DNA from: a bacterium
Lineage (GTDB): Bacteria; Patescibacteriota; Patescibacteriia; Patescibacteriales; GWE2-39-37
DNA length: 64,000 bases
Assembly (NCBI GenBank): GCA_037146995.1
Contig: JBAWWA010000001.1
Coordinates: 9,072 to 73,071, forward strand
Reading direction: 5' to 3'
Shown: piece after piece, positions 23,197 to 53,746 of the stretch
Position numbering within the stretch: position 1 is the first letter of the stretch
How the letters are laid out: each line of letters opens with the position of its first letter
Made by a program: the position numbers and the translations under genes
The notes under the pieces: model-generated
The model's database searches: none
Told to the model about the DNA's origin: nothing
The model's input: the letters and a program-made list of their open reading frames with translations, nothing else

Positions 23197-24246
23197 CTAG
23201 GCTTTAAGGGTTTCAGGATTCTCTGCATAGTTCATGGCCACATCCCTAGTTATCAACCCTTGCTTTAATAATAACAAGAGATTCTGGTCCATCGTTTGCA
23301 TGCCAATTTTGGAATTAGTCTCAATAATACTTTTAATTTGTGGGATTTTATTCTCTCGAATCATGTTAGCAACCGCTGGCGTGTTAATTAACAATTCTCG
23401 AACGGCTACGCGGCCATCTACACCATTCTTTGGTAATAAGCGCTGAGAGATAACACAAGCCAGTGAAGCGGACAATTGCATACGGACCTGATTTTGCTGA
23501 TAGGGTGGGAAAATATCTATTATACGATCAATAGTTTGAGCTGCGCTATAAGTATGCAAGGTGGCGAATACTAGATGCCCAGTTTCTGCGAGCGTGACTG
23601 TAGCAGCCATACTCTCAAGGTCTCGCATCTCTCCAACCATAATAACATTGGGATCCTGACGCATGGCACATTTTAGACCGTCAGCAAATGAAATCATGTC
23701 ATCACCGAGCTGTCTTTGCATAAACATGCTCTTTTTTGGCTGAAAAACATACTCAATTGGATCTTCTAGGGTAATTATATTAGCTCTACGGTTCAAATTA
23801 ATATGATTAATCATGGCTGCCAAGGTTGTGGACTTGCCAGAACCAGTTGGACCAGTTACTAATATCAAACCTTGCCTCAAATTTAAGATATCTAAAACAA
23901 CTGGCGGAAGGCCCAAGGCCTTAATATCAGGAATAATATCAGAGATCAGACGAGCGACTAGACCACGATTCTTTTTTTCAAAAAAAACATTCACGCGATA
24001 ACGACTACCATCGGCCAATTGATAGCCAAAATCAAGATTTCTATCCTTAATAAAAGCAAAGCGCTGCTCTGCCGTTAGCATCGAATCAATCAAAACCTCG
24101 ATTTCTTTCTCCTCAAGGACTTTTTTACTGCCTGGCATTTCTAATAAATGCCCATCAATTCTGAGCATCGGCACATAGCCGACCAACAAATGAACGTCTG
24201 AGGCCTTTTCGGTTACGGCAATTGAAAATATTTCTTTTATTGTCAT
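23197..24246 (-). CDS. pilT: Type IV pilus retraction ATPase PilT
   Basis: 349-aa ORF with Walker A GPTGSGKSTT, Walker B/Asp box IIMVGEMRD, His box and the typical N-terminus ASDVHL. The size fits PilT/PilU rather than PilB. Confidence 0.9.
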   Translation of the reverse strand: MTIKEIFSIAVTEKASDVHLLVGYVPMLRIDGHLLEMPGSKKVLEEKEIEVLIDSMLTAEQRFAFIKDRNLDFGYQLADGSRYRVNVFFEKKNRGLVARLISDIIPDIKALGLPPVVLDILNLRQGLILVTGPTGSGKSTTLAAMINHINLNRRANIITLEDPIEYVFQPKKSMFMQRQLGDDMISFADGLKCAMRQDPNVIMVGEMRDLESMAATVTLAETGHLVFATLHTYSAAQTIDRIIDIFPPYQQNQVRMQLSASLACVISQRLLPKNGVDGRVAVRELLINTPAVANMIRENKIPQIKSIIETNSKIGMQTMDQNLLLLLKQGLITRDVAMNYAENPETLKA

Positions 24247-24272
24247 CTCCTTTTTTAATATTTTTAAACTAT

Positions 24273-26021
24273 TTAATCGATCTTTACTTTGATTTTATCC
24301 AAATCAGTATTAGTAATGCCGTTGCCTAATTTTCGCATAACCGCGAAAGCGTCAGTTGGTCGACCCAAATAATATGCCTTATGATCCTTTGGATTTATAA
24401 AATACGCTTTCCCACCATCTTCTACGTCCAACAATATCCTGCCAGAAAACCTATCTGGATACAATTTTTTGCTATATTGTGTAATTATACTATGTTTAAC
24501 TCCCATACCAAGTTTGCGCATCACCGCAAACGCATCCGTCGGCTTGCCTAAATAATACCTCGACAAATTTAACGGATTAACATACCACGCCTCACCTTTA
24601 CTTTGAACTTGTAGCAAAATCTTGCCAGCATTTTTTGCAGAAAAGGCTAAATTAAAAAACAATTTACCCTTGCCTTTAGGATTATTATCCGAGATAATCT
24701 CAGTCCTGTCATTATAGCCATCGCCGTCAGAGTCTTTTTTATTAGCGTTCAGACCAAGGGCCACCTCCAGCGAATCAACCAAACCATCGCCATCAGAATC
24801 TGTATTTTTTTCGGCCACAGATGGCTTTACTGGATTACTAGTGCTAGGCCTGGTTGAGGTTGCCACTGAACTTGAAGCAATTATTGATCCACACGTCTGT
24901 GTTAATATTGGCGCCCCACCACTACAACCACCTGGCAAGCTAGTCAAAATTGTCCTTGCTTGCTTGCCAGCAACACAACTAGTCCAAACTGAATAAGTCC
25001 AGCTAGTACAGGCTGCCGCTGTAAAGCTGCCACCACCAGAGCCACCAGACCCTCCAGGACTCACAACTGGCGTAACCACGGCCGCCTGCGTTGTCGCTGA
25101 TGAAGTAGCAGATAAGGCGGAATCGTTACCAGCTGCATCATATGCAGACACTCTGTAGCTATAAAGAGTCGCGGCGGATAAACCGGTATTAGAATATGAA
25201 TTTGTAGCTGTCTGAGCCAAGAAAACATTGTTTCTATAAATTTTGTAACCCAAAACTGCAATATTGTCAATTGATGGGGTCCAGGTGAGACTAATCTGAG
25301 TAGAGGAATTTACTGTCGCTTGTAAATTCGTAGGCACGGATGGCAAGGTAAGATCAGAACCACTACCAACACCAAACATTATTGTGTAATCAGAGTTATT
25401 AACATTTCCCGCCTCATCAGCGCAACGAACGTAATAATGATAAGTTTGACTATCAGTTAGACCTGTAACCACAACTGTATGCGAAGTGCTGGCGACAGCC
25501 TCGAAGACTTTTGTCATACTAGAATATACAACTCCCGTTGATGTAGAATATTTACAAATTGCTTTCTCATCCGTTATCAAGGTTAGAGTTGTCTGAGTTG
25601 TGCCCGTAGCTAACAAACCAGAGGGCGCCCCAGCTGAAAGGACTGGCGGAGCAATGAGCTTGCTTTGCTCTGACGAACAAACACTTTCATTATTTGAGGT
25701 ATCATAAGCCGTTACTGCAAAATAATATGTTAAATTATCAGTCAATGAACTAAAAGTATGAGTTGTCGAGGTGGTACCTACCATGTGATAACTAAAGGTG
25801 TACCCCGCTGGTGAAGTGCTAGCCCGACTTACCGTATCATAATAAATATTATAGCCCGCCAAGTCTGGCTCAGTGTTCGCATTCCACGAAACAATCGCCG
25901 TTCCAGCCATGACTGGCAGGGCAAAAAAAGCACCAATGAGAATCGCATAAATCTCAATTAGAAAAACTTTTAACAAACGTCTAATCATACATTTTATAAA
26001 ATTTATTTTTATTATCATCAA
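24273..26021 (-). CDS. P13: secreted/anchored multi-Fn3 protein with TSP3-like Ca-binding repeats and duplicated C-terminal domain
   Basis: 582-aa ORF; the likely start is ATG 25988 (MIRRLLKVFLIEIYAILIGAFFALPVMA|G). The first Fn3 starts directly at strand B (TAIVSWNANTEPDLAGYNIYY). Two more Fn3 modules follow, then a Gly/Ser linker and DSDGDGLVD...DSDGDGYND. The C-terminus carries two copies of a ~55-aa module (...YYLGKPTDAFAVMRKLGMG / ...YYLGRPTDAFAVMRKLGNG). Confidence 0.85.
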   Translation of the reverse strand: MMIIKINFIKCMIRRLLKVFLIEIYAILIGAFFALPVMAGTAIVSWNANTEPDLAGYNIYYDTVSRASTSPAGYTFSYHMVGTTSTTHTFSSLTDNLTYYFAVTAYDTSNNESVCSSEQSKLIAPPVLSAGAPSGLLATGTTQTTLTLITDEKAICKYSTSTGVVYSSMTKVFEAVASTSHTVVVTGLTDSQTYHYYVRCADEAGNVNNSDYTIMFGVGSGSDLTLPSVPTNLQATVNSSTQISLTWTPSIDNIAVLGYKIYRNNVFLAQTATNSYSNTGLSAATLYSYRVSAYDAAGNDSALSATSSATTQAAVVTPVVSPGGSGGSGGGSFTAAACTSWTYSVWTSCVAGKQARTILTSLPGGCSGGAPILTQTCGSIIASSSVATSTRPSTSNPVKPSVAEKNTDSDGDGLVDSLEVALGLNANKKDSDGDGYNDRTEIISDNNPKGKGKLFFNLAFSAKNAGKILLQVQSKGEAWYVNPLNLSRYYLGKPTDAFAVMRKLGMGVKHSIITQYSKKLYPDRFSGRILLDVEDGGKAYFINPKDHKAYYLGRPTDAFAVMRKLGNGITNTDLDKIKVKID

Positions 26022-26152
26022 CTAACTTAATACAAATTAATTATAGCCTAATTCTTGAAAAATGTCATAAATTTTATATTTTTTTGCGCGATAGTCTATA
26101 ATTAAACATCACAACGCTAGTTGCAATTAACTATTTGCATTTTACATTCAAG

Positions 26153-28501
26153 CTAAAACACACTCAAACCACTTGGCGCGCCTGGGGCAACGATATCAAC
26201 AGCCGACCCGACCTCATAAGCACCCCAATCAATACCTGCGCCGAATGGACGAGAATTTCCTAAAATATCAACTGCTGGAATTGTCACTGCGCCAAACACG
26301 GTGCTGCCTGCAATTGAACTTGCCATGTCTATAGCAGGACTTCCAATTTGAGGAACAACATCCCAGCGCTCGCCATATGTATAAATATCATTATAGGCCG
26401 TATAAGGTGGAACATTTTGCAGTAATGGATTCACGCACAAAACATTATTTGGCACAGAACAAAGATTGAATTTTGAGTTAAAAACAATTGAATCTTTGTT
26501 GTCAAATAAAACTGGATTAGTGGCAGCGCAGGAGCCATCCCCATTGCCACTCCAACCATCCAAATAAAAAGTGTCAGCATAAGTTCCCGGAACGATGCCA
26601 ACCTGAGAAGCACTCCACCATTCCATGCCAGCAAAAATGTTGTTTCGGGAATAGACTTTTTGATTTCCATCGCAAACGCCAGAATGAGTTAATGAATTAA
26701 ATGCATAAAACCCATCAGTTTGAGATCCAATTCCCGTCATGTGATAAATTCCATTACCATCAGCAATCCATGTTCCGGTGAGTGTTTTTTTGGTATTGTA
26801 ATTATTGTATTGCAAAACAATATCAAAAGTATTTGGATCTTGATTGCCAGGCAAACGCAACCAAATAGAGTCGACTGATAAATTTACAGCATATTGATTA
26901 TCAGAAACAATTGTTGCTGCAGAGCCATCAACTGAAGTGTAATAAACTGCATTAAAAATATAGTTACTACCTGTTATAGCTCCAATTCCTGTCATGTGAT
27001 AAATTCCATTGCCATCAGAAATCCATGAATTTGGCAAGACATAACTAGTCGTGCCAACTCTTGGTAAAATTTGAGCCGTATTAGCATCAGCACTGCCAGA
27101 AAGCTTAACCCACATGGTGTCACTAGCTTGATCAATAATATACTGCCCAACGGCAGTAATTGAAGAAACATTTGTTAGTGAGCCACTAAGGCCAGCCTGT
27201 GTAGCTCCACCGCCAGTACCAATTTCAATAAAAACTTTATTAGGACCAATAATGGTTGAATTGACTATTGAACTTTCTCGTCCGCTTCTCCAATTTGAAA
27301 GCATGATTGGGGTTCCTGCTGCCCGACAATTTGGAAATCCAGTTTGAAATGCAATAGGATTATTGAAAAAATAATTACAATCACCAATAATAACACTGTT
27401 TTCAACAAAAGAATTTCCTCCAAATTTAATTTGTTGACCAACATTCCCTTCCGCTCTAATTCTATTTGCTTTAATTGAGCCAGTGGTTCCAATGTGATAT
27501 AACAAGTCAATTCCATCTTGGGTGTTATGCATAAACTCACTATCTTCAAAAATCCAATCACCCGCAGTGAAATACATACCAAGGCCATCACCATAACCAC
27601 CTTGACCTTGACCATAGCAGCCGCCAGTTGCTATGTCGGGATACACACCTGTCAAAGGATAATTTTCCACACAACCAGTATAATTAATTTTACTATTTTT
27701 AAATAAAATAGTGCCGTGCATTGAACTATCAGTCCCCGAGCCAAAAGCTCCATGTCCAACATCACCATTCCAGCCACTAAAAGCATTACCATGAATATTA
27801 ACCCCATCAAAAGTCCAGTCCGTCAATCTCCCTGCCCAAATTGCCCCATTTGAAAGACCATGAATTTTAATATCCTTCAATAAAACATTGGCACTATCCT
27901 TGGCATATATTCCATAATCAGCTTGATCACCATATGGCGCAACACTTCTATTACAAAGTAATGTTGGATTTGAGGTGAAATTATATCCACATTGCAAATG
28001 ATCAGTAATATCGAGATACATTAATTCAACATTTGAACTTCCAACCAAGCTCAAAATTTGCGTAGCTCGACCTGATCCCCAAAGCTCAGGAGCTGAAGTT
28101 GATTTTGTGTCCCAATTTTGACCAATAATTCTGGTTGGATGCAATGCATCAGGACCAGAAGGGATTGAAGGCGTAACACATTGATAAGTCCAAGCAGCGT
28201 TGCAGGCTGACATTCCGGTGTTCGGCGCACCTGCCCCCATTTTATATGAACCATTTCCAATCATTACCGTATCACCACCAGCAATAACAGCTACGTCACC
28301 TGGCGGCAAAAGCCAAAAAGGATGATTTACAGCACAAGCCTGAGCAGTTCCACTGCCTGGATATGCAGCATCAGCAAGTCCAGTGCACTCCGTCAATGTA
28401 CCACCATCAGTTCGCACATACCAAGTTGCTGCGCTAGCAAAATTTGGCAGCGCAAAAAATATTACCAAAATAAAAAATGATTTTATATTAATTATATTCA
28501 T
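26153..28501 (-). CDS. P12: secreted right-handed beta-helix (pectate-lyase-like) protein with internal 85-aa duplication; C-terminal tag VDIVAPGAPSGLSVF
   Basis: 782-aa ORF with signal peptide FFILVIFFALPNFASAA. It has Gly/Asn-rich beta-helix coils, a repeated W[IS][AS]DGNGIYHMTGIG module and the conserved C-terminal tag. The enzymatic assignment is tentative. Confidence 0.85.
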   Translation of the reverse strand: MNIINIKSFFILVIFFALPNFASAATWYVRTDGGTLTECTGLADAAYPGSGTAQACAVNHPFWLLPPGDVAVIAGGDTVMIGNGSYKMGAGAPNTGMSACNAAWTYQCVTPSIPSGPDALHPTRIIGQNWDTKSTSAPELWGSGRATQILSLVGSSNVELMYLDITDHLQCGYNFTSNPTLLCNRSVAPYGDQADYGIYAKDSANVLLKDIKIHGLSNGAIWAGRLTDWTFDGVNIHGNAFSGWNGDVGHGAFGSGTDSSMHGTILFKNSKINYTGCVENYPLTGVYPDIATGGCYGQGQGGYGDGLGMYFTAGDWIFEDSEFMHNTQDGIDLLYHIGTTGSIKANRIRAEGNVGQQIKFGGNSFVENSVIIGDCNYFFNNPIAFQTGFPNCRAAGTPIMLSNWRSGRESSIVNSTIIGPNKVFIEIGTGGGATQAGLSGSLTNVSSITAVGQYIIDQASDTMWVKLSGSADANTAQILPRVGTTSYVLPNSWISDGNGIYHMTGIGAITGSNYIFNAVYYTSVDGSAATIVSDNQYAVNLSVDSIWLRLPGNQDPNTFDIVLQYNNYNTKKTLTGTWIADGNGIYHMTGIGSQTDGFYAFNSLTHSGVCDGNQKVYSRNNIFAGMEWWSASQVGIVPGTYADTFYLDGWSGNGDGSCAATNPVLFDNKDSIVFNSKFNLCSVPNNVLCVNPLLQNVPPYTAYNDIYTYGERWDVVPQIGSPAIDMASSIAGSTVFGAVTIPAVDILGNSRPFGAGIDWGAYEVGSAVDIVAPGAPSGLSVF

Positions 28502-28553
28502 AAACTTTCAGTCAAAAACTGATCAATTTTTTGACTGATTTTTAATATTTTAA

Positions 28554-31013
28554 TTACAATACACTTAGGCCACTTGGGGCACTTGGGGCTATAACATCAC
28601 CTGAAAAATATTCGAAAGCTCCAAGATCCATAGCACTACCATTTACAACTCTTAACGCCTGTAATTGTGGATCGCTATACGACATTTGAACTGGTAAAAA
28701 ATCTGCTGGCATTGCAGCACCTTGATCGATATTTTGCGATGTTGCCAATAAATTAAAATTAAGTGATCCAGTAGTTGTAGAAATAAACCCAGCATTTCTT
28801 TGTGGATTATTAATAAAATTTGCAGTCCCGGCAATATGCCCGGTAAAAATACCATCTGAACGATTTCTAGTCCAGGTAGAATTGACCCAGTTTTTTCCAA
28901 AATAAGCAACGCCTTCATTTGACAGTAAGTCCTGATCTGGAACCGTTTGGGTATTCACTGGAATAAAATTAACAATATTATTACGAGCGTCCAAGCTCTC
29001 TCCCGCGCTAGACATGTCAAAAACATTAACTCGCCATGCCTGTGACTGGTCAGCAATATTTACCAGCGTGTTGTGATAAAATGCCAAGATGCCTTTACGA
29101 TAACTCGGTGTCACACCACCATCTCCACCATAATGAATAGGTGTTGCAGCTCCGCCAGGAAATTGATTATAAAAAATATTTCCATAAACAAAAGTCTTAT
29201 TATAAGAATCCAAATAAACTTCAGATGCTTGATAATTTTGTGACTCAACCAAATCTATTAAATGTCCACCTCCTTGAAACCAGTTATAGCGAATAATTGT
29301 TCCTGCGCCGCGATCTTTTAATCCGCCACCGACTGATAACGCCCGAAGTGGTCCATATTTATTATATTGATATATAACATTTATGCCTTCAACATATGAA
29401 TTATGCTGTTGACTACTGCTGACTGTGCCATTGCCATAAATATAATTTGATTCAAAAATAATATCCTCTAAGTTTCGCTGATCCCCCTGCCCAGCACCAA
29501 AAATACCGTCGTTATTGCCATGTATAATATTATTTTTAAAAGTAATATGATCACCTTTTTCAATATAAATACCACATCCGTGACCATAAGTTCTAACCAA
29601 GCCATTAAAGTCGGTGTATGTTGTTGGGAAACCGGGGTCGCCACCATACCCGTTTGTTATTTCAAAATTATTAAAATTAAAATACCCAGGACTCCAGCCA
29701 GAATCATTTTGCGTCGGACGATAACTAATCAAAACAAGCGCCACGTCATGAAGTGGCATGTAGCTACGATTCCACTGGGAATTTTCAATGGCATTGGATC
29801 CGTCAATGATCGGAAGTTTACCCGTTGTCGGATCTGCTATGCCCTGAATTATAATAGGAGCTACAGCCGTGCCACGCACTGAAATCATGGGCTTTTCATA
29901 ATATGGCACGACGTCACCATTTCCGTTTTTATTTGGATAAACATTAACAGTATCCCCGGGACCTAGTAATGACCAATTCAGAGCACCTAACGATGTATAA
30001 GTTTTTCCTGGACCGATCTCATAAACCTTCGCAGAGCCCGTGCCAGAACTTGCACTGCGAATTTTTATAGTATTAGAATAGCCAGAATTTCCGTTCACAT
30101 TTTTTGCGCGCACGCGTACGTAATAAAATTTTTCGGCTAAAGTTGTAAGATTATAATTTGTAGCACCTGATGCAGTTTCTGCCACTTGCGTCCAAGTTGG
30201 CAGTGTTGGTGCCCAGGCAAAAGGAGCTGTTTCTATTAGATAGCTAGAAGCTCCGGTATTTGTATCATTCCAAGATAAAGTTGTTTGTACGGAACTATTC
30301 ACCACGCCAGACAAATTTGTCGGCTCAATGGGCAAATTAACTGCTTTACTTTGGGTAATCGCACTTACAGGCAGTGTGTAATCACTATAATTAGAGCCAG
30401 TAACCAATCTGATACGATAGTAATAAGTTGTTGCAGGAATTAGCGGTGTATCAATAAAGTTAAGGCCAACGCCGCCACTACCTACAACTGAAACTATTGA
30501 ATATGAAACATTGTCCATCGATCTTTCCAAAAACCAGCTGCGAGACATAGTGTTATTGTCATTCCAATTCAAGGTAATTGAATACGGCGAAGTTGCTGTT
30601 GCTTTAAAGCTTTCTGCTGGCAAAGCAGTTACAGCACCACTTACTTTTGTTGTCGTGGCAATGCTTTGCACTGGAGCAGAGCTACCATTAATATTATCGG
30701 CTGTTATCTGATAAAGATACGAAGTTGCAGGATAAAGAGAGGTGTCAGTAAAAATATTCGAACCGGCTGGTAAGATTTTAACTTTTTTATATATTCCGCT
30801 GTCAAATCTCCAGATCGTAATTGACGTTTCTCCGCCTCCTACTCTTTCCCATGTTAAATTTATTTCAGTGTCAGAGACTGGCATCACTTCTAAATTAATT
30901 GGAGATGATGGCTCGCCCGCAGCCTTTGAAAAACCTGGCAAAATTAAAAGCAAAATCAAACAAATATATATTTTAAATTGTATTTTAAGACAACTCATTA
31001 ATTTTTCAATCAA
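28554..31013 (-). CDS. P11: secreted protein with three N-terminal Fn3 domains and a beta-helix (NosD/pectate-lyase-like) domain; C-terminal tag GDVIAPSAPSGLSVL
   Basis: 819-aa ORF. The track start is TTG, and ATG at 30998 (MSCLKIQFKIYICLILLLILPGFSKAAG) is more likely. It has three complete Fn3 modules (SSPINLEVMPVSDTEINLTW...), beta-helix repeats (NNIIHGNNDGIFGAG...) and the conserved tag. Confidence 0.85.
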   Translation of the reverse strand: MIEKLMSCLKIQFKIYICLILLLILPGFSKAAGEPSSPINLEVMPVSDTEINLTWERVGGGETSITIWRFDSGIYKKVKILPAGSNIFTDTSLYPATSYLYQITADNINGSSAPVQSIATTTKVSGAVTALPAESFKATATSPYSITLNWNDNNTMSRSWFLERSMDNVSYSIVSVVGSGGVGLNFIDTPLIPATTYYYRIRLVTGSNYSDYTLPVSAITQSKAVNLPIEPTNLSGVVNSSVQTTLSWNDTNTGASSYLIETAPFAWAPTLPTWTQVAETASGATNYNLTTLAEKFYYVRVRAKNVNGNSGYSNTIKIRSASSGTGSAKVYEIGPGKTYTSLGALNWSLLGPGDTVNVYPNKNGNGDVVPYYEKPMISVRGTAVAPIIIQGIADPTTGKLPIIDGSNAIENSQWNRSYMPLHDVALVLISYRPTQNDSGWSPGYFNFNNFEITNGYGGDPGFPTTYTDFNGLVRTYGHGCGIYIEKGDHITFKNNIIHGNNDGIFGAGQGDQRNLEDIIFESNYIYGNGTVSSSQQHNSYVEGINVIYQYNKYGPLRALSVGGGLKDRGAGTIIRYNWFQGGGHLIDLVESQNYQASEVYLDSYNKTFVYGNIFYNQFPGGAATPIHYGGDGGVTPSYRKGILAFYHNTLVNIADQSQAWRVNVFDMSSAGESLDARNNIVNFIPVNTQTVPDQDLLSNEGVAYFGKNWVNSTWTRNRSDGIFTGHIAGTANFINNPQRNAGFISTTTGSLNFNLLATSQNIDQGAAMPADFLPVQMSYSDPQLQALRVVNGSAMDLGAFEYFSGDVIAPSAPSGLSVL

Positions 31014-31097
31014 AATTTATTAGCATGTCACAAGATTACTAATTATTAATTATAGCACGCAACGAGTTTTTTTAAATAAAAACAGCTTAATAAATCT

Positions 31098-33389: not shown

Positions 33390-33395
33390 TTGTTA

Positions 33396-33404
33396 ATTTT
33401 AACA
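33396..33404 (-). promoter_or_regulatory. Extended -10-like element (TGTTAAAAT) 6 nt upstream of the P10 ATG
   Basis: Minus strand reads tgttaaaat-taacaa-ATG. No Shine-Dalgarno is visible, and the spacing would place the transcription start at or near the ATG (leaderless). Confidence 0.35.
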
Positions 33405-33427
33405 CACTAATTATTTTATCTTCTTAT

Positions 33428-35056: not shown

Positions 35057-35155
35057 TTGTTAATTATAGCACAAGAAACTTATTCAAATTTACTCCGATC
35101 CAGTTATAATTTTATTATAACACACTCAAACCGCTTGGTGCACTTGGAGCAATCA
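34992..35155. repeat. 164-bp perfect direct repeat, copy A (P8 C-terminus + spacer + P9 signal peptide)
   Basis: By manual alignment it is identical base for base to 38077-38240. It spans the last 14 codons of one gene, the 58-nt spacer and the first ~22 codons of the next gene. Confidence 0.85.
35063..35071 (-). promoter_or_regulatory. Extended -10 element (TGCTATAAT) 6 nt upstream of the P9 ATG
   Basis: Minus strand reads tgctataat-taacaa-ATG with no Shine-Dalgarno. The same element sits before P8 (38148-38156). Confidence 0.4.
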
Positions 35156-38141: not shown

Positions 38142-38240
38142 TTGTTAATTATAGCACAAGAAACTTATTCAAATTTACTCCGATCCAGTTATAATTTTAT
38201 TATAACACACTCAAACCGCTTGGTGCACTTGGAGCAATCA
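38077..38240. repeat. 164-bp perfect direct repeat, copy B (P7 C-terminus + spacer + P8 signal peptide)
   Basis: Identical to 34992-35155. The copies lie 3085 bp apart in direct orientation and flank the whole P8 gene. Confidence 0.85.
38148..38156 (-). promoter_or_regulatory. Extended -10 element (TGCTATAAT) 6 nt upstream of the P8 ATG
   Basis: Minus strand reads tgctataat-taacaa-ATG. It is part of the 164-bp repeat. Confidence 0.4.
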
Positions 38241-43415: not shown

Positions 43416-43462
43416 TGGAAAAATTTATTTTTGCGAGCGACTTAATTTCAAGTACAAAATTT

Positions 43463-45916: not shown

Positions 45917-45923
45917 GTTTCAA

Positions 45924-48746
45924 TCATAACACGGCCAACCCACTCGGTGCAGTTGGTGGCGTAACGTCAGGAGCTATCTTCGATGCAACACCCATGGCGT
46001 ATGGCTCATTCCAAAACAGTGCCGCACCTTGATAGCCGGTATTATCGCCTGGCAAGTTGAAATTCAACGAGCTTATATTTAAACTAAGATTGGCAATGCT
46101 TCTAAATTTTGCTTGAATTTGTGACCATTTAGACTGCCAAATAGACGGGAAAAGCAAATTAGCAGGATCTATGGTTGAAGCATACAGCAAAGGAAATGGT
46201 AATTGATTCCCCCCATCGGTCGAATTCGGGCTTGATAATATTCTTTCAGGGCTAACTGAATATGCCCACAAATTATTGCCAATATTATTCATCCATGGAA
46301 ATACACTTGAATGGTCTGGATATCCCATAAAATTATGATCAGCCAAGACATTAACGGTCTGCACAATCATTTCATTTATTGTCTTATCGTCAACTGATAT
46401 TGACTGATTTGACCCTCTGTAATTGATTGACTTAGAATAACTTCCTCCAATTTTTTTTAGATCTTCTAGATACCTAATAATATCTGTCTCAAAATATGCC
46501 GCCATCCAAGAAACTGGCACATGATTTTGATAAACCCAAGTTGAGGAATTACCACTTATTGGAACGTTGGTGGATTGAGTATTGTCAGTTTTCATCGTTG
46601 ATAAAAAATAACCGTTACCATTAGTCCAATCCATCGGTTCGTAATAAAGTGCCTGTGACTGTAACGATTGCAATGGGTCAACATCTGTCTTATTTGGATC
46701 GAAAACAACAATTGGTTGTGGAAATTTCCACCAATCAATACTATTTTTCATGGCCACAGTGGCAGCATCCCAGTACTTAGTATCATTAGTTGATTCAAAG
46801 GTTTTTAAAACTGTATACAATGACCATGCTTGAGCACGCTCATATTCTATGCCTTGAATCGAGTCACCTTGAAATTCAGGTACAATACGCATATCTCCTG
46901 CCAAAATTTTGCAAGTCAAAAAATCACCTTGTTCTTTTGAAACATCCAATGCACGAGGGTCGCCAGTGAGCAAGAAATATTCGTCGATTCCACCAGGCAC
47001 CACATGTCCACCTTCAGTTGCCGATCTTTCATGGTCACCACCACCATGCCAATGAATTAACCCTGCCGGACAAGTTGAATATCCAGGCCACGTTGTGTGC
47101 ATCACATCAAGATCATAATGGTGCTTCGCATAATTTTCAGACCAATTGAAATATTTTTTACGACCCAAGCGAAGATATTGTAAGATCCAACCGTGTGCAT
47201 CCTCATAGTGCTGATTAGCATAGTTGTATGGATGATTACCCATAATATAATCGCCATAATCACGTTTGCCGTAGGTTATATTATAGATAGAGCAGTTACT
47301 CCTATTCAATGAGCATGTAAATTGATTTTCAATTTGAGTATCCCAGCGACTCGAATTCGCGTCTGGAACGGAAATTAGACCAAAAACGTCAGACTGCACG
47401 TACCATGCAGGTTCAGCATAGATCAAAGGCTTTTCCTGAAAAAGCTTGAACTTTTTTACTGAAGAAGCTGAATCAGTACCAACATGAAAATTAAGAAAAA
47501 TATCATGTGTTTTGCCAACACCTGGCGCCCATGAATACATGCCGTTTATTGATTCATCTGGTTGAACAAAAATTTGCAGTAAACCCTGATCATTAATGGA
47601 TAATTTGTTTGGGAAATTTTGCCAAAAATCTCTAATGCCAGCAGTAACGCCTGTCACACCCCTATTAATATCCATCCAACCTTGAGCTTTTCCACCAACC
47701 TGATCAGGACTAACACCTCCAATAGCCCCAGTCGCAACTTGATTTCCAACCCCCGAATAATTAAACAAATATTCAAAACCACCAGCATACCCCTTGGTTA
47801 TTTCGGTATCAGTGACCGTCGCATCCTGTAAAAGATAATTGGTGCCACTTACGCTTCCAGTATAATTTGTAGCATTGCCACCAAATTCAAAAGTTGAAGT
47901 AGTGGCAACTAAGGGCAAATCCAGGTGATTACTTTTAATATCAACATATTTTGTTATTCCATTCCAATTATTTGTCGCATTAACTCTTGCGTTGTCATCA
48001 ATCCAAGTGTATTTTATTTCTACCTGACCAGAGTTTGCAAAAAATGTTAACCACATTTTAACCGTAACCAAAGTATTTTCACCAAAATTATTATTACCAG
48101 CAACAGCCTTAGCCTTACCAGTCAATAAAATTGTTGTTTTCAATGGACCTGCTTCAACAGTGTTTAATGTGTAATTTTGAGATAAAGAAGTTTTAAAGGT
48201 GTTATTAGTTAAATTGTCTAAAAACACTAAATCACCCGGTGACTGCAATTGATTAACGCCTCCAATTTTTACTTGATCAAAAATAGTAAAAGCTGTTTTG
48301 TTGACATAAAAAGTTGAAACTCCATTATCAATAACTATTTGAGATCCATTATCACTAGTGACTATCGGATTAACAACTGCAGGGGCCGTGATACCGGCCG
48401 TATTTTGATATACTATTTTATAATTTTCATAACTAGTCCCATTTGCAGCAACTGCTGGAACAAATGAAACCAACGCCACTTTCACTGAATTATCTGGCCA
48501 AGAAACCAATTTAGTAAACTGTGCCGCGACTGGATTATCATTAGAATCAACAACTCTTAAAATATTAACATCACTCAGTTGGCCAATAGCAAAAGGCACT
48601 CCTGAGCTAACAGTGTAACCAGGAGTTGACAAGGTTGTGCCGATATTTATTGTCATGGGTATTTCGCCATTAGCAGCTAAGGCAAAATTTGGTAATACAA
48701 AAATCACTACCAAAATAAAAAATAACTTTAATAATAACTGTTTCAT
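45924..48746 (-). CDS. P4: large secreted protein of unassigned catalytic fold; C-terminal tag PDVTPPTAPSGLAVL
   Basis: 940-aa ORF with signal peptide FFILVVIFVLPNFALAA. It has an N-terminal beta-rich region and a central His/Trp-rich region (HYEDAHGWILQYLRLG...HWHGGGDHERSATEGGHVVPGGIDEYFLLTGD). Conserved tag, stop TGA. No confident family. Confidence 0.8.
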   Translation of the reverse strand: MKQLLLKLFFILVVIFVLPNFALAANGEIPMTINIGTTLSTPGYTVSSGVPFAIGQLSDVNILRVVDSNDNPVAAQFTKLVSWPDNSVKVALVSFVPAVAANGTSYENYKIVYQNTAGITAPAVVNPIVTSDNGSQIVIDNGVSTFYVNKTAFTIFDQVKIGGVNQLQSPGDLVFLDNLTNNTFKTSLSQNYTLNTVEAGPLKTTILLTGKAKAVAGNNNFGENTLVTVKMWLTFFANSGQVEIKYTWIDDNARVNATNNWNGITKYVDIKSNHLDLPLVATTSTFEFGGNATNYTGSVSGTNYLLQDATVTDTEITKGYAGGFEYLFNYSGVGNQVATGAIGGVSPDQVGGKAQGWMDINRGVTGVTAGIRDFWQNFPNKLSINDQGLLQIFVQPDESINGMYSWAPGVGKTHDIFLNFHVGTDSASSVKKFKLFQEKPLIYAEPAWYVQSDVFGLISVPDANSSRWDTQIENQFTCSLNRSNCSIYNITYGKRDYGDYIMGNHPYNYANQHYEDAHGWILQYLRLGRKKYFNWSENYAKHHYDLDVMHTTWPGYSTCPAGLIHWHGGGDHERSATEGGHVVPGGIDEYFLLTGDPRALDVSKEQGDFLTCKILAGDMRIVPEFQGDSIQGIEYERAQAWSLYTVLKTFESTNDTKYWDAATVAMKNSIDWWKFPQPIVVFDPNKTDVDPLQSLQSQALYYEPMDWTNGNGYFLSTMKTDNTQSTNVPISGNSSTWVYQNHVPVSWMAAYFETDIIRYLEDLKKIGGSYSKSINYRGSNQSISVDDKTINEMIVQTVNVLADHNFMGYPDHSSVFPWMNNIGNNLWAYSVSPERILSSPNSTDGGNQLPFPLLYASTIDPANLLFPSIWQSKWSQIQAKFRSIANLSLNISSLNFNLPGDNTGYQGAALFWNEPYAMGVASKIAPDVTPPTAPSGLAVL

Positions 48747-48752
48747 TTGTTA

Positions 48753-48761
48753 ATTATAACA
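48753..48761 (-). promoter_or_regulatory. Extended -10 element (TGTTATAAT) formed by the Val-Leu-stop codons of P3, 6 nt upstream of the P4 ATG
   Basis: Minus strand reads ATT GTG TTA TAA ttaacaa ATG. The string tgttataat overlaps the GTG-TTA-TAA codons plus the next T. The intergenic gap is only 7 nt. Confidence 0.4.
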
Positions 48762-51087
48762 CAATAAGACCGCTTGGTGCACTTGGAGCTATAATATCAC
48801 TCACTGGAATTTCTCCAGTTTTTACAATTTGAAAAGCTCCGCCACCATTTGCCTCAAAATTCAACACACCCTGAGGGGAGGCGACCACTGCTGTAATAAT
48901 TTTTACTCCATCTCGGTAAACGTCATAGATTGCCGGCTCCATATCTACCAAAAGATGATTTCCAGTTGAAGAATATGCCACCGTGTAAGTCACAGCATTT
49001 TGTTGAATGGTTTGATATGATTCGTCTGACGCAATTGGATCTATTATTTGATTAATCTGCTTAGAAAACAACACAACTTGCGGCACACTTGTTTCGATAA
49101 TACTCCCAATCATGGCTCCAGTGTCTATTCCTGTAATTGCTGGGGTTGTTGATCCACTGGCAGTTGTTAACATGACAGTTAAGGGATTAAAATCTATGGA
49201 AGGCGGAGCAGTAACTTCAACACGCGGATTATAAAAAGTCTTATATGGGGCAATAACTGGATGACTTATCAGGCTAATACTTGTTGTTGCATTTAAAGGG
49301 TAGACAGTTTTTAAATGAAATTTTGATGAACCAGCCGTTGTTGTTACTAGGGAGTCAGATTGAACAGGCGCATTGACGTTGGTCAAATACCATTGAAAAC
49401 GGCGATTATAATCCACACTCTTCTGCTTAGTAATATCATAAACGACAACGATGGCGCCACCACCAACAGATATATAGTTTCTATAAAATAATCTTAACGA
49501 TCTGTATTTAGGCGGGGTCAAATATTTATCACAATAATATGCACTTGTTAAATCAGCCTTTTCATAAACAAAATTTGAATTACCCTCATAATTTAAAATA
49601 GTATTTACACCGAGATGAGACTGGCCACCTTCATATTCGGTTGATTCTGGCAGTTTGCAATATGCTCCACCATCATCAATCCAAAAAGTATTAGCAGCCA
49701 CGCTGGTTTGTACCTGACCAGTGCTCGAGGAATAACCAGGAAAAATCACATTAGAATCTCTCCATTGACCTGCATTAACTAACAAATAATCATTACCACG
49801 TTGAATAGTTACATGGCCAGCCAATTTAGCAGACTGCGGAGCAAAAAAACCGGCGCCACCAGACATCATTGACCAAACGGCGTCAGTATTCCAGCTTGAT
49901 CTAGAAAATATTTTTTCCGTACCGACCTCTCTATAATAAGTTGGCAATGTAATATTGTAATTTATTGGTACCACAGTATTGTCATTCCACAAAAATCTGG
50001 TTATATCATCTGATGCCGGTCTTTGAATTGATGGAGAGGGCGAAGCTCCGACATTATCAATATAATATCTAGCCTTTCCAGCTGCGGTTATATCATTAGA
50101 CGCCACCAATCTTGTTACTATGCCCAAATCAAGAACCCAGTTTACAGAACCGCTCTGAGTACCAAAATCTGTCATCTGCCACCTATTGGGTTTTGTATTA
50201 TAAATTATGCCATCAATGATTTTATTAGCATTTGAACCTAAATAATCTTGACCACTGGCAGATTTTTCTGCATAAAACAAATCTATTAAAAAATTATACA
50301 CTTCAGCTCCATAACTAGTATAACTTTCTACTGCCTGCCCACCAGAAAATGCCCCTGTTTGAAATAATGGAATAGTTGTTGAAGATATTTTTGATCGTAT
50401 CGCCGACAACTGTGTTGCAGCTGCGCTATTATCACCATACATAGCTAAAGCCTGGATACCTAAACCCCTGAGATGGCCGTTATGATAGTTTCCTGACGTA
50501 TACAAGGAATCGCCATAATATAACCCGCTGGCACTGACCCAATTATAATATGAATTTGCCAAGGTTATCATATTAGCCTTACGCGTATTATCCAAATAAT
50601 CATATAACCAATCATAAGCGATACCCAAGGCACCGGGAAGATACCTAGAAGGATAACCGGAATCAATCTGCATGGCAGACATATCAAAGGTCAACATCAC
50701 ATCGACCAAATCCCTGGCTTTTGCAGCATATGCTACATTGCCTGTCATCTTGTACGCAAGACATAAAACATTCATGGCATCCCACCAGCCGGCACCTTGA
50801 TAACCATAATGCATGTTTCCATAATCAGTACCTCCGGGATTCAAGGTATTTCCATTTTGTTGAATTGACTGAGTCAAAAAAGAGTCAGCCCTTGCTTTCA
50901 TTGCCAACCAATCAACATCATTAGCTGCAACTTTCGCTTGAAGTTGTGTTATTTTTTCCGGCGACAGCCAAATCCTTGGATGTGGTCCATCTGGTAAATA
51001 ATCTGGTCCACCGAAGGCATAAACAAATTTTGGCAAAATTACAAATATTGCCAGCAGTAAGAATAATCTTGAATTATGTTTAAACAT
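48754..51087 (-). CDS. P3: secreted heparinase II/III-like protein; C-terminal tag SDIIAPSAPSGLIVL
   Basis: 777-aa ORF with signal peptide LFLLLAIFVILPKFVYAFG. It has FGGPDYLPDGPHPRIWLSPE and IAYDWLYDYL. Its C-terminal ~90 aa are nearly collinear with P10. Confidence 0.85.
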   Translation of the reverse strand: MFKHNSRLFLLLAIFVILPKFVYAFGGPDYLPDGPHPRIWLSPEKITQLQAKVAANDVDWLAMKARADSFLTQSIQQNGNTLNPGGTDYGNMHYGYQGAGWWDAMNVLCLAYKMTGNVAYAAKARDLVDVMLTFDMSAMQIDSGYPSRYLPGALGIAYDWLYDYLDNTRKANMITLANSYYNWVSASGLYYGDSLYTSGNYHNGHLRGLGIQALAMYGDNSAAATQLSAIRSKISSTTIPLFQTGAFSGGQAVESYTSYGAEVYNFLIDLFYAEKSASGQDYLGSNANKIIDGIIYNTKPNRWQMTDFGTQSGSVNWVLDLGIVTRLVASNDITAAGKARYYIDNVGASPSPSIQRPASDDITRFLWNDNTVVPINYNITLPTYYREVGTEKIFSRSSWNTDAVWSMMSGGAGFFAPQSAKLAGHVTIQRGNDYLLVNAGQWRDSNVIFPGYSSSTGQVQTSVAANTFWIDDGGAYCKLPESTEYEGGQSHLGVNTILNYEGNSNFVYEKADLTSAYYCDKYLTPPKYRSLRLFYRNYISVGGGAIVVVYDITKQKSVDYNRRFQWYLTNVNAPVQSDSLVTTTAGSSKFHLKTVYPLNATTSISLISHPVIAPYKTFYNPRVEVTAPPSIDFNPLTVMLTTASGSTTPAITGIDTGAMIGSIIETSVPQVVLFSKQINQIIDPIASDESYQTIQQNAVTYTVAYSSTGNHLLVDMEPAIYDVYRDGVKIITAVVASPQGVLNFEANGGGAFQIVKTGEIPVSDIIAPSAPSGLIVL

Positions 51088-51115
51088 GTTATTATTTTAT
51101 CTAATATGCATTTAA

Positions 51116-52573
51116 TTATAGCACGGAAAGACCGCTTGGCGCATTTGGCGCCACAATATCACCAGAAATAGAATAACTATGCAAACCACTGCTAGAATTA
51201 ATAAATTCAATAATCCCAGCCAAGTTTGCGGTATATAAAGTATTTATGCCAGAATCAATACTTACATTATAATTTTTATTTGGAGTCAAGCTTGTGACAA
51301 TATTTCTTGACTGGGTAGTAGTAGTTGCACTATAGGCCAAATCAATGATATCGTTTCCGTCTTGATTATCAGTAAACATTACAATTAAATTTTCTAATTG
51401 ATTTTCAATTAATGCGCCCCTGCCACCAGTGCCAGCAATTAGCACTGCCGGAGTTTGCGAATCGGTTGAACCGGTGGCTTCAATAACGTGAAGGAACTGA
51501 TCATACTCCTGAGTGACAGTTGGCTCATATTTAACACGATGAAAAACAGCAGACATGTTACTGTTATTTGTCATAGACGTGTCAGTATAGCCACCGCTTT
51601 GCGGATATAAACCTTTTAAGTATATTTTTGACGAACCCACTGTAGCAAAAATATTTCTATTTAATGAATCTATTATTGGCACCGCCTCAAATTGCATGTA
51701 CCAAGATTTTTTATTACTCTTTGCTGAATTTGAACGTGTCACATCATAAATCACAAAAATATTTGGCCTTAAATGTAAAAATGTTCTACGAAAATTTTTA
51801 GCAAGATTTGTATTGCCAATTCCATCAAAAATATTATGGACATCACCACTGACGTAGGCATAATTAGCGTTATTATCGATTCTATCAATAACAGGGGTTA
51901 GAAGTGTTTGTGAAGAAGGAGACCCACCAGTCATGCCGCTATTGTTACTTTGTGTTGTAATTAATCCATTACCATCAGAAATACCATCACCAAAAACTAT
52001 AGAATTCTGACCTTGCGATGTTTCATCACTATTAGAGGATGAATCCATATAGCGTGAAAGAAGCCTGTCAAGGCCTCGATTAATAATGATTGCACCCTGA
52101 TCTTGGGCTTGATGATCTACGTTGAAAATTCCACCCAAAACAAGTTGTGCGGTCACGCTGTTAGTGGCAGTCTTACTCCAGGACGATCGTGTCGTCACTA
52201 CACCGCTCCCAATGGAATGATATATTAGTGGCTCAGCTGAAAAATCTTTTGTTGCTGCAGCGCTATCTCTAAACAAAAATCTCTGCCAATCCATATCAAG
52301 ACGAGGAGTTAATGAGGCGTTATTTAAAAAATATTGCAATTGTTTTGCTTCATCAGACGCAGGATAATAGTTTCGCAAAATATGGGAAAAAGTATTCATA
52401 GCATATTCGCTTGGATGAAGCCAAAAAGATAGATTTTGAGGTTTATTTATAGCACCCCTTTGAAGTTGTACCGTTAATGTTGGGTCAGTGTTGTGGATAT
52501 AATTTTTAGCCACCTCCTTGGGAAAATCAAAAGCTGTCCACGTGTCCAGCCCTGTGGCTGTATTTAATCCCAA
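51116..52573 (-). CDS. P2b: C-terminal part of a heparinase II/III-like gene interrupted by an in-frame TAG; C-terminal tag GDIVAPNAPSGLSVL
   Basis: 485-aa ORF (the track start is an internal TTG). It has no signal peptide of its own and is collinear with the C-terminal 60 percent of P5 (TQEYDQFLHVIEATG...TSLTPNKNYN...). It lies in frame with 52619..53746 across a single TAG. Confidence 0.75.
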   Translation of the reverse strand: MGLNTATGLDTWTAFDFPKEVAKNYIHNTDPTLTVQLQRGAINKPQNLSFWLHPSEYAMNTFSHILRNYYPASDEAKQLQYFLNNASLTPRLDMDWQRFLFRDSAAATKDFSAEPLIYHSIGSGVVTTRSSWSKTATNSVTAQLVLGGIFNVDHQAQDQGAIIINRGLDRLLSRYMDSSSNSDETSQGQNSIVFGDGISDGNGLITTQSNNSGMTGGSPSSQTLLTPVIDRIDNNANYAYVSGDVHNIFDGIGNTNLAKNFRRTFLHLRPNIFVIYDVTRSNSAKSNKKSWYMQFEAVPIIDSLNRNIFATVGSSKIYLKGLYPQSGGYTDTSMTNNSNMSAVFHRVKYEPTVTQEYDQFLHVIEATGSTDSQTPAVLIAGTGGRGALIENQLENLIVMFTDNQDGNDIIDLAYSATTTTQSRNIVTSLTPNKNYNVSIDSGINTLYTANLAGIIEFINSSSGLHSYSISGDIVAPNAPSGLSVL

Positions 52574-52618
52574 AATGCCTTGAAAAAGCTCTTGCCAATC
52601 AGAAAAATAAGCTAAACC

Positions 52619-53746
52619 CTATAAAGAATCGCCGCCCTTATAAACGATTGAACTGGATAATGCATCATAGTGACGTTGCCACAAACTCTTGGCATAATTC
52701 AAATAATGATCAGCATCGACTTGAGGTGCATCACCATAGGCCGCCACCGCATTTAGCATGGCCAGGCCAACGAATGGTTCATAAAAATTTGAACCTATTC
52801 TGCCAACTCCACCAGGATTTGCATAGCCATATTGCTTATACGTATTGGCCGCGGCGATCGGCGACAGATTGCAATTATTAGGCGCACTGCATGCACCAGC
52901 AATAATATTCCCATTAGCATCTTTGCCGAATTGATCCTCATGATAATAAGTGCCACCAATAAGAATGCCATTATTATAACTACTTCGGACTGCATTATAC
53001 CAATCAATATGTCGATACATCATTTTATATAAAGTGGTTTTAAGCTCTAATGTCATGTGCGAATCATTATAAAACCAATCATAAAACAATGGAATCGTTT
53101 GTGCCAAGGCTCTGGCTGCATAGCCACTCTTAAATGACATGTTGCCATTAGTAGTATAGATAAATCCATTGGCATGATTCAATGCAGCCTCATCCGCATT
53201 TAAGGTCACCAATTGACTACTCTTGTCATCACTGAGGCGAATAAACTCTATTCCGTCTTTTTCCTCGCCGGCAGAATAAAGCGTGATAACTCGATTCATC
53301 AGGTCAAATGCATGTGCAGCATAGGTAGCCGCCTTAATATCATCAGCCGTAGCACCAGCCGTGCCGTAATTCACACCCTTTAGAGTTTGATATGCGATGC
53401 CCCAGGAAATTATCGCCTCCTGAATACCGCTTCCAACATAACCATCACCGTCCGGCCAGGTATAAATACCAAGAGCCGATGTACTGCTAGTGCTAATTTT
53501 TTTACTTGGTATGTTATCAAAATAAATAAAATAATTATCACAGCGATTTATTAAAGCTTGATATTCTGAAGTATTAGCAGTTTTTTTGGCTTTCATTTGA
53601 AAAATAACGTCAGGCGTTAACCATATCCTTGGATGCGGGCCGTCAGGTAAATAATCAGGGCCACCATAAGCAAGTGTAAAACTTGGCGCAACTAAAAAAA
53701 ACATTAAAATTAAAATTAAATTTATCTTTAATGTTTTTTTAATCAT
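52619..53746 (-). CDS. P2a: N-terminal part (signal peptide + toroid domain) of the interrupted heparinase II/III-like gene
   Basis: 375-aa ORF with signal peptide LILILMFFLVAPSFTLAYG, YGGPDYLPDGPHPRIWLTPD and LFYDWFYND. It ends at TAG 52621-52619 with no C-terminal tag. Confidence 0.75.
   Translation of the reverse strand: MIKKTLKINLILILMFFLVAPSFTLAYGGPDYLPDGPHPRIWLTPDVIFQMKAKKTANTSEYQALINRCDNYFIYFDNIPSKKISTSSTSALGIYTWPDGDGYVGSGIQEAIISWGIAYQTLKGVNYGTAGATADDIKAATYAAHAFDLMNRVITLYSAGEEKDGIEFIRLSDDKSSQLVTLNADEAALNHANGFIYTTNGNMSFKSGYAARALAQTIPLFYDWFYNDSHMTLELKTTLYKMMYRHIDWYNAVRSSYNNGILIGGTYYHEDQFGKDANGNIIAGACSAPNNCNLSPIAAANTYKQYGYANPGGVGRIGSNFYEPFVGLAMLNAVAAYGDAPQVDADHYLNYAKSLWQRHYDALSSSIVYKGGDSL

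Follow-up and report, generated by a model that had tools for sequence, protein, structure and literature searches.

Cellulosomes hold many secreted polysaccharide-degrading enzymes together at the cell surface. Their enzymes share one common C-terminal docking module, the dockerin, a Ca-binding domain of ~70 aa, which is held by a surface-anchored scaffold, a long scaffoldin with multiple cohesins. A single C-terminal tag is also found on many unrelated secreted proteins in sorting and attachment systems, as in LPXTG/sortase, PEP-CTERM/exosortase, the C-terminal domain (CTD) of the type IX secretion system (T9SS), and Haft's choice-of-anchor domains. Chaperone-usher pili, type V pili, and archaeal threads follow another principle, in which an Ig-like sandwich without an edge strand is completed by another polypeptide. 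Pilus subunits lack the C-terminal G strand, the donor is the N-terminal extension of the next subunit, and the polymer is built with a chaperone and an usher. Archaeal threads are treated in bioRxiv 10.1101/2022.04.26.489512. In the man-made SpyTag/SpyCatcher pair, a peptide of ~13 residues restores an Ig-like domain with a larger fragment and forms an isopeptide bond to it, and complementation between fragments of a fibronectin type III (FN3) domain, with high affinity, was reportedly described by Dutta, Batori, Koide and Koide in Protein Sci in 2005. Here we analyze a window of 64 kb (the whole stretch of DNA studied, from contig JBAWWA010000001.1 of assembly GCA_037146995.1) from a member of the candidate phyla radiation (CPR), also known as Patescibacteria. 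These organisms make up a large share of bacterial diversity, and their surface organization and dealings with hosts or polymers are little known, with type IV pili as the main exception. The window contains an array of 11 genes for secreted, enzyme-like proteins that all end in the same short tail, which resembles the first strand (strand A) of an FN3 domain. The genes on either side of the array encode two proteins, G00 and G13, that each have an FN3 domain lacking this strand.

The 11 enzyme genes form one co-directional block on the minus strand (26153-53746, ~28 kb), as described in the first-pass annotation, a reading made earlier from the sequence letters. In total, 14 open reading frames (ORFs), all on the minus strand, lie between 23197 and 53746 with gaps of 7-131 nt, in a window with a base composition of ~38% G+C. 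We numbered the genes G01-G14 in transcription order on this strand, and all positions are those of the 64-kb window (Table 1). All 11 enzymes start with a near-identical Sec signal peptide, M-K-Q-x-L-K-L-F-F-x-L-x-x-F-x-x-L-P-N-F-A-S-A, and the first 25 residues of G08 and G09, including the signal peptide, are identical. Secretion, which the first-pass annotation had also proposed, is predicted from these signal peptides. All 11 enzymes end in D-x-[IV]-A-P-x-A-P-S-G-L-x-V-L directly before the stop codon, a 14-residue tail (for example, NSVSDLIAPSAPSGLSVL). In the Pfam fn3 model, the tail matches positions 1-15 (strand A), and it reads as an FN3 linker plus strand A; for comparison, an intact FN3 domain of G13 reads D-L-T-L-P-S-V-P-T-N-L-Q-A-T.

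A degenerate DNA pattern for the tail and stop codon had 9 matches in the window versus 0 expected. Among the 11 copies, compared pairwise, the core codons of the tail differ by 248 synonymous versus 30 nonsynonymous changes, and this excess of synonymous changes argues that the tail peptide itself is under purifying selection. In the AlphaFold2 (AF2) model of G09, the tail is disordered (residues 528-542, pLDDT <50). NCBIfam has no model for the tail. We found no description of it in the literature on CPR lyases, CPR cohesin-dockerin systems, FN3 complementation, and Moranbacteria carbohydrate-active enzymes, although this does not prove that it is unpublished. Stop codon recoding was considered as the origin of the tail and rejected, as TAA, TGA, and TAG all close tails and a new signal peptide follows each. 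The tail, the shared signal peptide, G00, and an in-frame stop codon in G01/G02 (see below) had been missed in the first-pass annotation.

G00 lies directly upstream of G01, and G13 lies directly downstream of G12. In G00, an N-terminal transmembrane (TM) helix is followed ~8 residues on by GQATLTWNKNIESNIAGYKVYYG, where an FN3 domain begins at strand B, and the protein has a conserved Cys pair. The G00 family members P0002-P0005 have the same layout. The first FN3 domain of G13 also begins at strand B, followed by two intact FN3 domains, a Gly/Cys-rich linker, and TSP3 Ca-binding repeats. Against the fn3 hidden Markov model (HMM), G00 alone aligned to positions 16-80 (33.9 bits). Placing the tail before G00 in silico extended the alignment to positions 1-80 (38.6 bits), and a reversed tail used as a control left it at positions 16-80 (33.8 bits). 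Domain 1 of G13 aligned to positions 16-72 alone (25.2 bits) and to positions 1-72 with the tail (27.8 bits). An incomplete FN3 domain (positions 16-80) thus occurs together with a tail that matches its missing positions 1-15 and is carried on another polypeptide, the sequence arrangement of donor-strand complementation. We used HMM coordinates for this comparison; a spacing argument from a MAFFT alignment of the tail-G00 chimera with fused homologues was dropped because the gaps near strand A were ambiguous. The C terminus of G13 (24273-24700, residues ~440-582) has two repeats of ~55 residues (…GEAWYVNP…YYLGKPTDAFAVMRKLGxG…) with no Pfam or NCBIfam match, and these could be a cell wall- or envelope-binding module of a scaffold protein.

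In homologues from other bacteria, both parts of the FN3 domain are found on one chain. In non-CPR homologues of G09, the catalytic module (conserved end …PLTDYVWGYLGN) is followed by a complete FN3 domain, while CPR homologues stop just after strand A. We compared the fused G09 homologues with the seven FN3 domains of the window, and in 8 of 8 the best match was G00 or domain 1 of G13 (E values of 1e-9 to 1e-14). These alignments begin after the homologue's own strand A. Homologues of G11 similarly continue into an FN3 domain where G11 ends.

We then compared gene neighborhoods. A metagenome scan seeded with the G00 family gave 80 loci, 8 with a narrow G00-type protein (short, TM-anchored, with the Cys pair) and 72 others. 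Tail-ending ORFs were found near the G00-type gene in 5 of the 8 loci, versus 4 of the 72 others (Fisher p = 2.6e-4). The tail-ending ORF is on the same strand and immediately upstream in L023, L025, and L026, ~0.8 kb upstream in L031, and ~6 kb from the G00-type gene in L032. In a further locus found by another route (L022), a tail-ending gene adjoins a G00-type gene. Relatives also carry strand-A-less FN3 domains on proteins with other anchors. In a Saccharibacteria locus (L019), a gene encoding such a domain together with PG_binding_1 directly precedes the gene for a beta-helix protein with the tail. In L029 and L032, the strand-A-less FN3 domain is fused to Dockerin_1, with a Cohesin protein alongside in L032.

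Independently, we scanned 185,579 species genomes for the tail pattern. Every match closing a long ORF was in a CPR genome: two Moranbacteria/Moraniibacteriota metagenome-assembled genomes (MAGs), a close relative (ELA218, GCA_037140955.1), one Parcubacteria MAG, and one Saccharibacteria MAG. There were also about nine chance-like matches, in short frames or with TGG in place of the stop codon. In the CPR loci, the neighbors of the tail genes encode many unrelated proteins with variant tails (…SVQ, …SVN, …SVM, and …AVI) and the same type of signal peptide.

The combination of a conserved strand A at the end of each enzyme and FN3 domains without strand A on both sides of the array suggests a split-FN3 docking system, in which the tails would dock into G00 or G13 and keep a shuffling set of enzymes that degrade glycans tethered at the cell surface. 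We give this reading, which is drawn from sequence comparisons, a probability of about one-half. The enzymes would be exported via Sec with the tail disordered. The tail would then take the place of the missing edge strand in the incomplete FN3 domain of G00 or G13, by beta-strand complementation, and keep the enzyme at the surface of a cell lacking an outer membrane. Such an arrangement would be like a minimal cellulosome in which a split FN3 domain replaces the cohesin-dockerin pair. Relatives anchor the strand-A-less FN3 domain otherwise, through a peptidoglycan-binding domain or through a dockerin beside a cohesin scaffold. At the surface, the HepII/PL35- and PL6/PL9-type lyases and the PcRGLX-like and GH123-like enzymes would cleave acidic or amino-sugar polysaccharides in the vicinity of the cell. 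More broadly, the tail is likely to be a signal of some kind for anchoring or sorting. Surface display of the enzymes, supposed in the first-pass annotation, is predicted with indirect support from the tail and its partner proteins.

Several observations weigh against split-FN3 docking. Adding the tail raises the HMM score by little (2.6-4.7 bits), and G11 homologues are fused to a generic FN3 domain rather than a G00-type one. At three G00-type loci there are no tails in the vicinity, and the array of ELA218 has no G00 upstream. Starting from the tail genes, a partner lies within 8 kb in only 1 of 11 CPR loci; a strict regular expression for partner proteins found none in the genome loci, and a relaxed version found only L019. 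Such low linkage is in keeping with a small number of receptors for many clients (2 to 11 in the window), yet it weakens the linkage argument. Proteins with a signal peptide and an FN3 domain starting near strand B are also common in non-CPR bacteria without nearby tail genes, so a missing strand A does not by itself prove a receptor role, and strand-A-less FN3 domains may be stable without a donated strand. Finally, among the proposed enzymes, catalytic residues are confirmed for G06 only.

Compared with known systems, the array is functionally closest to the cellulosome, and its proposed mechanism comes nearest to donor-strand complementation or an engineered split FN3/SpyTag pair. We propose that it resembles the cellulosome in its many secreted enzymes with one common C-terminal docking module and in a surface-anchored scaffold, and the related loci L029 and L032 join strand-A-less FN3 to true Dockerin_1 and Cohesin modules. 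However, no Dockerin_1 or Cohesin is found in G00-G13, which sets the array apart from cellulosomes proper. The docking element here would be a strand of 11-14 residues rather than a domain, and the receptor an incomplete FN3 domain with one site, or at most three FN3 domains, in place of a multi-cohesin scaffoldin. The likeness to donor-strand complementation lies in an Ig-like sandwich without an edge strand whose donor appears to be on another polypeptide. Unlike in pili, it is the N-terminal strand A that is missing, the donor would be the C-terminal tail of the enzymes, and there are no chaperone or usher genes. Unlike SpyTag, the tail gives no indication of isopeptide chemistry. In the literature searched, we found no natural split FN3 domain used for enzyme display. 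The docking principle itself stands a substantial chance of being new, while enzyme display by a common docking tag is of an already known kind.

The tail could instead be a C-terminal sorting or attachment signal for other machinery, for example a transpeptidase, a factor for attachment to the S-layer or wall, or a secretion step linked to pili, with G00 and G13 as unrelated surface FN3 proteins or accessory factors. Like the known sorting tags, the tail is shared by many unrelated secreted proteins. It also stands where homologues have other attachment modules: at this position, other G09 homologues have a T9SS domain, PG_binding_1, a dockerin-like end, or a Gly/Cys-TM signal. In G12, the tail directly follows a choice-of-anchor Q domain (NF041518, 33.4 bits with a cut-off of 25, residues 716-764 of 782); G11 has a weak match to the same model (17.1 bits). 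The scarcity of partner genes within 8 kb of most tail genes and the presence of PilT, PilC, and prepilin genes near the system in two loci fit such a signal as well. However, the tail ends in ...APSGLSVL, with no hydrophobic TM helix and no basic cluster, unlike LPXTG and PEP-CTERM signals and the sortase, exosortase, and rhombosortase types generally, and it is not a CTD of ~80 aa. Pfam scans of the window found no sortase- or exosortase-like gene or other cognate sorting enzyme. A sorting signal would also leave unexplained both the complementarity between fn3 positions 1-15 and 16-80 and the G00-type FN3 domains in orthologues. We therefore consider it unlikely that the tail serves other machinery, with G00 and G13 uninvolved.

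Split-FN3 docking may extend beyond this array. Tentatively, a natural split FN3 domain would be a general surface-docking system of CPR bacteria (Moranbacteria, Parcubacteria, and at least one Saccharibacterium), displaying rapidly shuffling enzyme cassettes at the host interface; this is quite possible, but we hold it with reserve. Such a system would have dozens of unrelated secreted proteins per genome tagged with strand A (~14 residues) and few receptors with strands B-G, whose anchor would be a TM helix, a peptidoglycan-binding domain, or a dockerin. If docking is correct, a simple rule, a signal peptide plus a C-terminal ...D-x-T-A-P-x-A-P-S-G-L-x-V-x before the stop codon, would find the surface proteome of CPR lineages, which is now mostly annotated as hypothetical. 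Docking would account for the retention of costly secreted enzymes by cells lacking an outer membrane. It would also represent a new anchoring principle for such organisms, a natural counterpart of SpyTag-like split domains, and a natural tag/catcher pair with potential use in protein engineering.

Two further groups of loci bear on how far related arrangements reach. A CPR-like subgroup (L024 and L027-L032) has true Cohesin and Dockerin_1 modules. Here, small proteins consist of a signal peptide, a strand-A-less FN3 domain, and a dockerin, and several neighboring proteins end in the dockerin-like motif DGxVNxxDxxIMMSQW. These cohesin and dockerin genes point to cellulosome-like assemblies outside Firmicutes. 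Separately, L033, L040, and L093/L096 (GC 0.47-0.63, probably non-CPR) encode proteins with the tail-like ends …APAPPTNFKVN, …PPSPPSNLTVQ, and …DSTPPSAPTGLKVQ, each before the stop codon. Their neighbors within a few kilobases include FN3 proteins that begin at strand B and have a signal peptide or are lipoproteins, and such pairs suggest that the split-FN3 arrangement may reach beyond CPR.

Profile, PDB, and fold matches agree that the proteins of the array are mostly glycan lyase- or hydrolase-like. Sequence or fold matches to HepII (PL21)/PL35, PL6/PL9, GH123, and PcRGLX-like enzymes were obtained for 9 of the 11, with sub-threshold matches only for G12. The array differs from these families in its low identities (10-30%), and most of the Pfam scores are near or below threshold. 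The fold inventory of the first-pass annotation held for 10 of the 11 proteins, the exception being the propeller assigned to G07.

The five heparinase II/III-like toroids that had been listed were all recovered: G08, G03, G05, G10, and G01/G02. G08 matches heparinase II (NCBIfam HepB NF045571, 1e-26; PDB 2fuq, 2e-14). A joint profile of G03, G10, and G05 (A5) matches heparinase II 2fuq over ~400 residues (5.8e-16) and PL35 DUF4962 lyases (8khw, 5e-7), with a weak match to PL15, and G03 has weak matches to DUF4962 and HepII_C in the Pfam scan. By BLAST, G10 and G03 are 37% identical (E 5e-143), and G05 matches G03 (6e-34) and G02 (4e-94). Residues N200, H205, and Y259 (G03 numbering) are invariant in the G03 family, in a region that did not align to HepII, and the consensus His opposite the HepII motif NHQHQDAG is not kept in G03. 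G01 and G02 are the two parts of a G05-like lyase gene interrupted by a single in-frame TAG (52619-52621, codon 376). Translated through this codon, the gene gives a product that aligns to residues 19-817 of G05 (36% identity, E 6e-134), and counting G01 and G02 as one interrupted gene gives the total of five toroids. The interruption is probably a pseudogene mutation or a sequencing error; it could be a strain polymorphism. TAG is the ordinary stop codon of G12.

G04, whose PcRGLX-like identity was not named in the first-pass annotation, scored above the Pfam cut-off for two of three domains (PF21345, 29.1 bits with a cut-off of 23.5; PF21346, 24.3 with 23.8; PF19501, 18.6 with 22.1) and had no PDB sequence match. 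G06 matches PF13320 (37.2 bits, cut-off 23.1) and PDB 8k2f (5e-19). It keeps the Asp-Glu dyad of GH123, with NNTMDEPGS aligning to ADEP/ADEI, which supports a GH123-like identity and bears out its earlier description as a DUF4091-like hydrolase.

Three pectate lyase-like beta-helices had been proposed and are supported to different degrees: G09 by a confident model, and G11 and G12 by weaker, indirect evidence. For G09 there was no family match, and its AF2 model, built from 31 homologues, is a right-handed beta-helix (pLDDT 86.5, pTM 0.88). Foldseek matched the model to 7o78 (2.7e-6) and 1ru4 (3.4e-6) with probability 1.0 and a TM score of only 0.35-0.43, and the nearest structures were PL6 chondroitinase B, PL9 Pel9A, and a PL9 rhamnogalacturonan lyase. 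The beta-helix fold also serves hydrolases, epimerases, and tailspikes. G11 matches fn3 (4e-12, two FN3 domains), and its C-terminal 500 aa match 1,400 representative clusters with members scoring up to 33.9 bits for Beta_helix; hhalign of G11 against the G09 family found no relationship beyond FN3. G12 has a weak Beta_helix match, and its N-terminal cap resembles the G09 family (hhalign, 72%). G07 was the one fold that could not be confirmed. It has a single PD40 repeat (PF07676, 24.1 bits), the AF2 model from 10 homologues has a pLDDT of 45 and is unusable, and a family profile search of the PDB was empty, so its assignment as a PL22 oligogalacturonide lyase-type propeller is not supported.

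These enzymes could form an ordinary nutritional cluster. Set free in the medium, they would feed the cell by breaking down environmental polysaccharides (plant or algal pectin-like, alginate-like, or glycosaminoglycan-like polymers), with no host attack and no connection to pili. The families are typical of saprophytic degraders, the adjacency to PilT is weak, and the ELA218 array adjoins glycosyltransferases instead. However, we found no sugar transporter, kinase, isomerase, or SusC/D-like gene among the window ORFs of at least 150 aa that were scanned or in the ~3 kb of recovered flanks beyond the window ends. The only ABC system in the window and these flanks is MacB/FtsX-type. The absence of the first three from the window had been noted in the first-pass annotation. 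The linked importer, regulator, and catabolic enzymes of a polysaccharide utilization locus were likewise not found in the window and its short flanks, and a tail on every enzyme favors retention over free release. From the window and these flanks, we consider a nutritional cluster of this kind unlikely. A role in host attack, as the first-pass annotation had proposed, is plausible, and the targets may be host capsule, EPS, or cell wall or else environmental polymers. Apart from the docking idea, a CPR genome devotes ~28 kb to glycan-cleaving enzymes with no linked uptake genes.

The first-pass annotation had placed pilT immediately after the enzyme block. G14 is a genuine PilT/PilU, with a full-length match to TIGR01420 (439 bits, cut-off 319.1) and the T2SSE ATPase core (PF00437, 2.6e-47), but it does not adjoin the enzymes, since G13, an FN3/TSP3 membrane protein of 582 aa, intervenes. 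G14 starts 26 nt after G13 and has its own upstream Shine-Dalgarno sequence, AAAGGAG; this start is ~500 nt upstream of the 23S rRNA gene. Besides the window, L025 is the only locus that ties a G00-type gene to type IV pilus genes. There (L025:622-3342), a tail-variant protein (ending …DTTPPAPPTGVTVS before the stop codon) precedes a G00-type gene; directly after that gene come PilC (T2SSF, 4e-60) and a prepilin bearing an N-methylation motif. The link of the array to pili is weak, because it consists of adjacency only, both here, with G13 in between, and in L025.

Comparison with ELA218 shows that array content changes between close relatives. Its array encodes, in this order, homologues of G05 (75%), G09 (85%), and G03 (85%), a new beta-helix protein of 644 aa, a G11-like protein (27%), a G10-like protein (43%), and a homologue of G12 (95%), all with the signal peptide and tail. 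The order differs from that of the window, G04, G06, G07, and G08 are absent, and the upstream genes differ. Upstream of the array lie two GT4 glycosyltransferases, TerC, and a DUF4012 protein of 913 aa in ELA218 (L103:1-7503), and RNase III and G00 in the window, so the array sits in a different genomic context. Within the window, the cassette at the junction of G08 and G09 (Table 1) is duplicated at the junction of G07 and G08 (38068-38246) as a direct repeat of 179 nt with 97% identity, pointing to recent recombination or gene conversion where cassettes meet. Together, the mosaic array of ELA218 and the duplicated junction indicate that the array behaves as a set of shuffling cassettes. Mosaic arrays in genomes with 75-95% identical orthologues are a candidate marker of host or substrate specificity.

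Most array genes may also have their own promoters. A -10 hexamer matching TATAAT at five or more of six positions and ending 6-7 nt before the ATG precedes 8 of 11 array genes versus 1 of 24 others (p = 6e-5). These boxes, at the starts of G03-G10 (26153-51087), are mostly TGnTATAAT, and there is no Shine-Dalgarno sequence. At the 7-nt junctions, the box is formed by the last codons and stop of the previous gene (GTG TTA TAA T). A generic promoter/terminator scan was uninformative (87 promoter-like sites versus 70 expected). The -10 boxes just before the ATG suggest one promoter per gene, with most array genes individually transcribed as leaderless mRNAs. The same features could mean that the tail is a leftover FN3 start with no role in the protein, kept for the promoter overlap that supplies the next gene's TGnTATAAT box at 7-nt junctions or as a homology handle for shuffling, as the duplicated junction and the changed array order might suggest, but this is very improbable given the 248 to 30 excess of synonymous changes at core positions, the persistence of the tail in distant lineages with other stop contexts and intergenic sequences, and its presence on unrelated protein families, with promoter overlap accounting for at most 2-3 codons.

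Table 1. Positions in the 64-kb window of the array genes, the genes that flank them, and the junction cassette
Feature	Position	Strand	Description
G00	53819..54241	-	140-aa membrane-anchored FN3 protein without strand A; candidate tail receptor
G01/G02	51116..53746	-	HepII-type lyase gene; signal peptide at start, tail at end
G03	48754..51087	-	777 aa, HepII/PL35-like toroid lyase; signal peptide and tail
G04	45924..48746	-	940 aa, PcRGLX-like three-domain protein; signal peptide and tail
G05	43463..45916	-	817 aa, HepII-type toroid lyase paralogue; signal peptide and tail
G06	41124..43400	-	758 aa, GH123-like beta-N-acetylgalactosaminidase-type hydrolase; signal peptide and tail
G07	38200..41115	-	971 aa, all-beta, one PD40 repeat, C-terminal FN3-like domain; signal peptide and tail
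G08	35115..38141	-	1008 aa, heparinase II-like lyase; signal peptide and tail
G09	33428..35056	-	542 aa, right-handed beta-helix, PL6/PL9-like; signal peptide and tail
G10	31098..33389	-	763 aa, HepII/PL35-like toroid lyase, G03 paralogue; signal peptide and tail
G11	28554..31013	-	819 aa, two FN3 domains and large beta-helix-type module; signal peptide and tail
G12	26153..28501	-	782 aa, beta-helix-like; choice-of-anchor Q domain directly before tail
G13	24273..26021	-	582 aa, membrane or signal-anchored, no tail; second candidate receptor or scaffold
G14	23197..24246	-	PilT/PilU type IV pilus retraction ATPase
Junction cassette	34983..35161	-	Last ~45 nt of G08 including tail, 58-nt spacer with TGCTATAAT box, first ~70 nt of G09 with signal peptide

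The rest of the window, which also has housekeeping genes, is consistent with the proposed origin. The 23S and 5S rRNA genes (19321-22694) have no adjacent 16S gene, and the closest protein relatives are in Moranbacteria/Parcubacteria MAGs. At 61044-63548 there are six tandem paralogues of a small T4SS-pilin/TrbC-VirB2-like protein (PF18895); such paralogues have been reported for the type IV secretion system of Patescibacteria. On the basis of the rRNA layout, the T4SS-pilin paralogues, and the nearest relatives, a CPR/Patescibacteria origin is well supported, in agreement with the CPR-type organism that the first-pass annotation had suspected. The 23S gene aligned over 3,079 nt to a model of 2,925 positions and, being longer than the model, probably carries insertions. 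At 8629-12453, an AlwI-family restriction endonuclease (PF09491, 4e-89) lies beside a fused D12-class N6-adenine methyltransferase, and the two are predicted to form a type IIS-like restriction-modification system.

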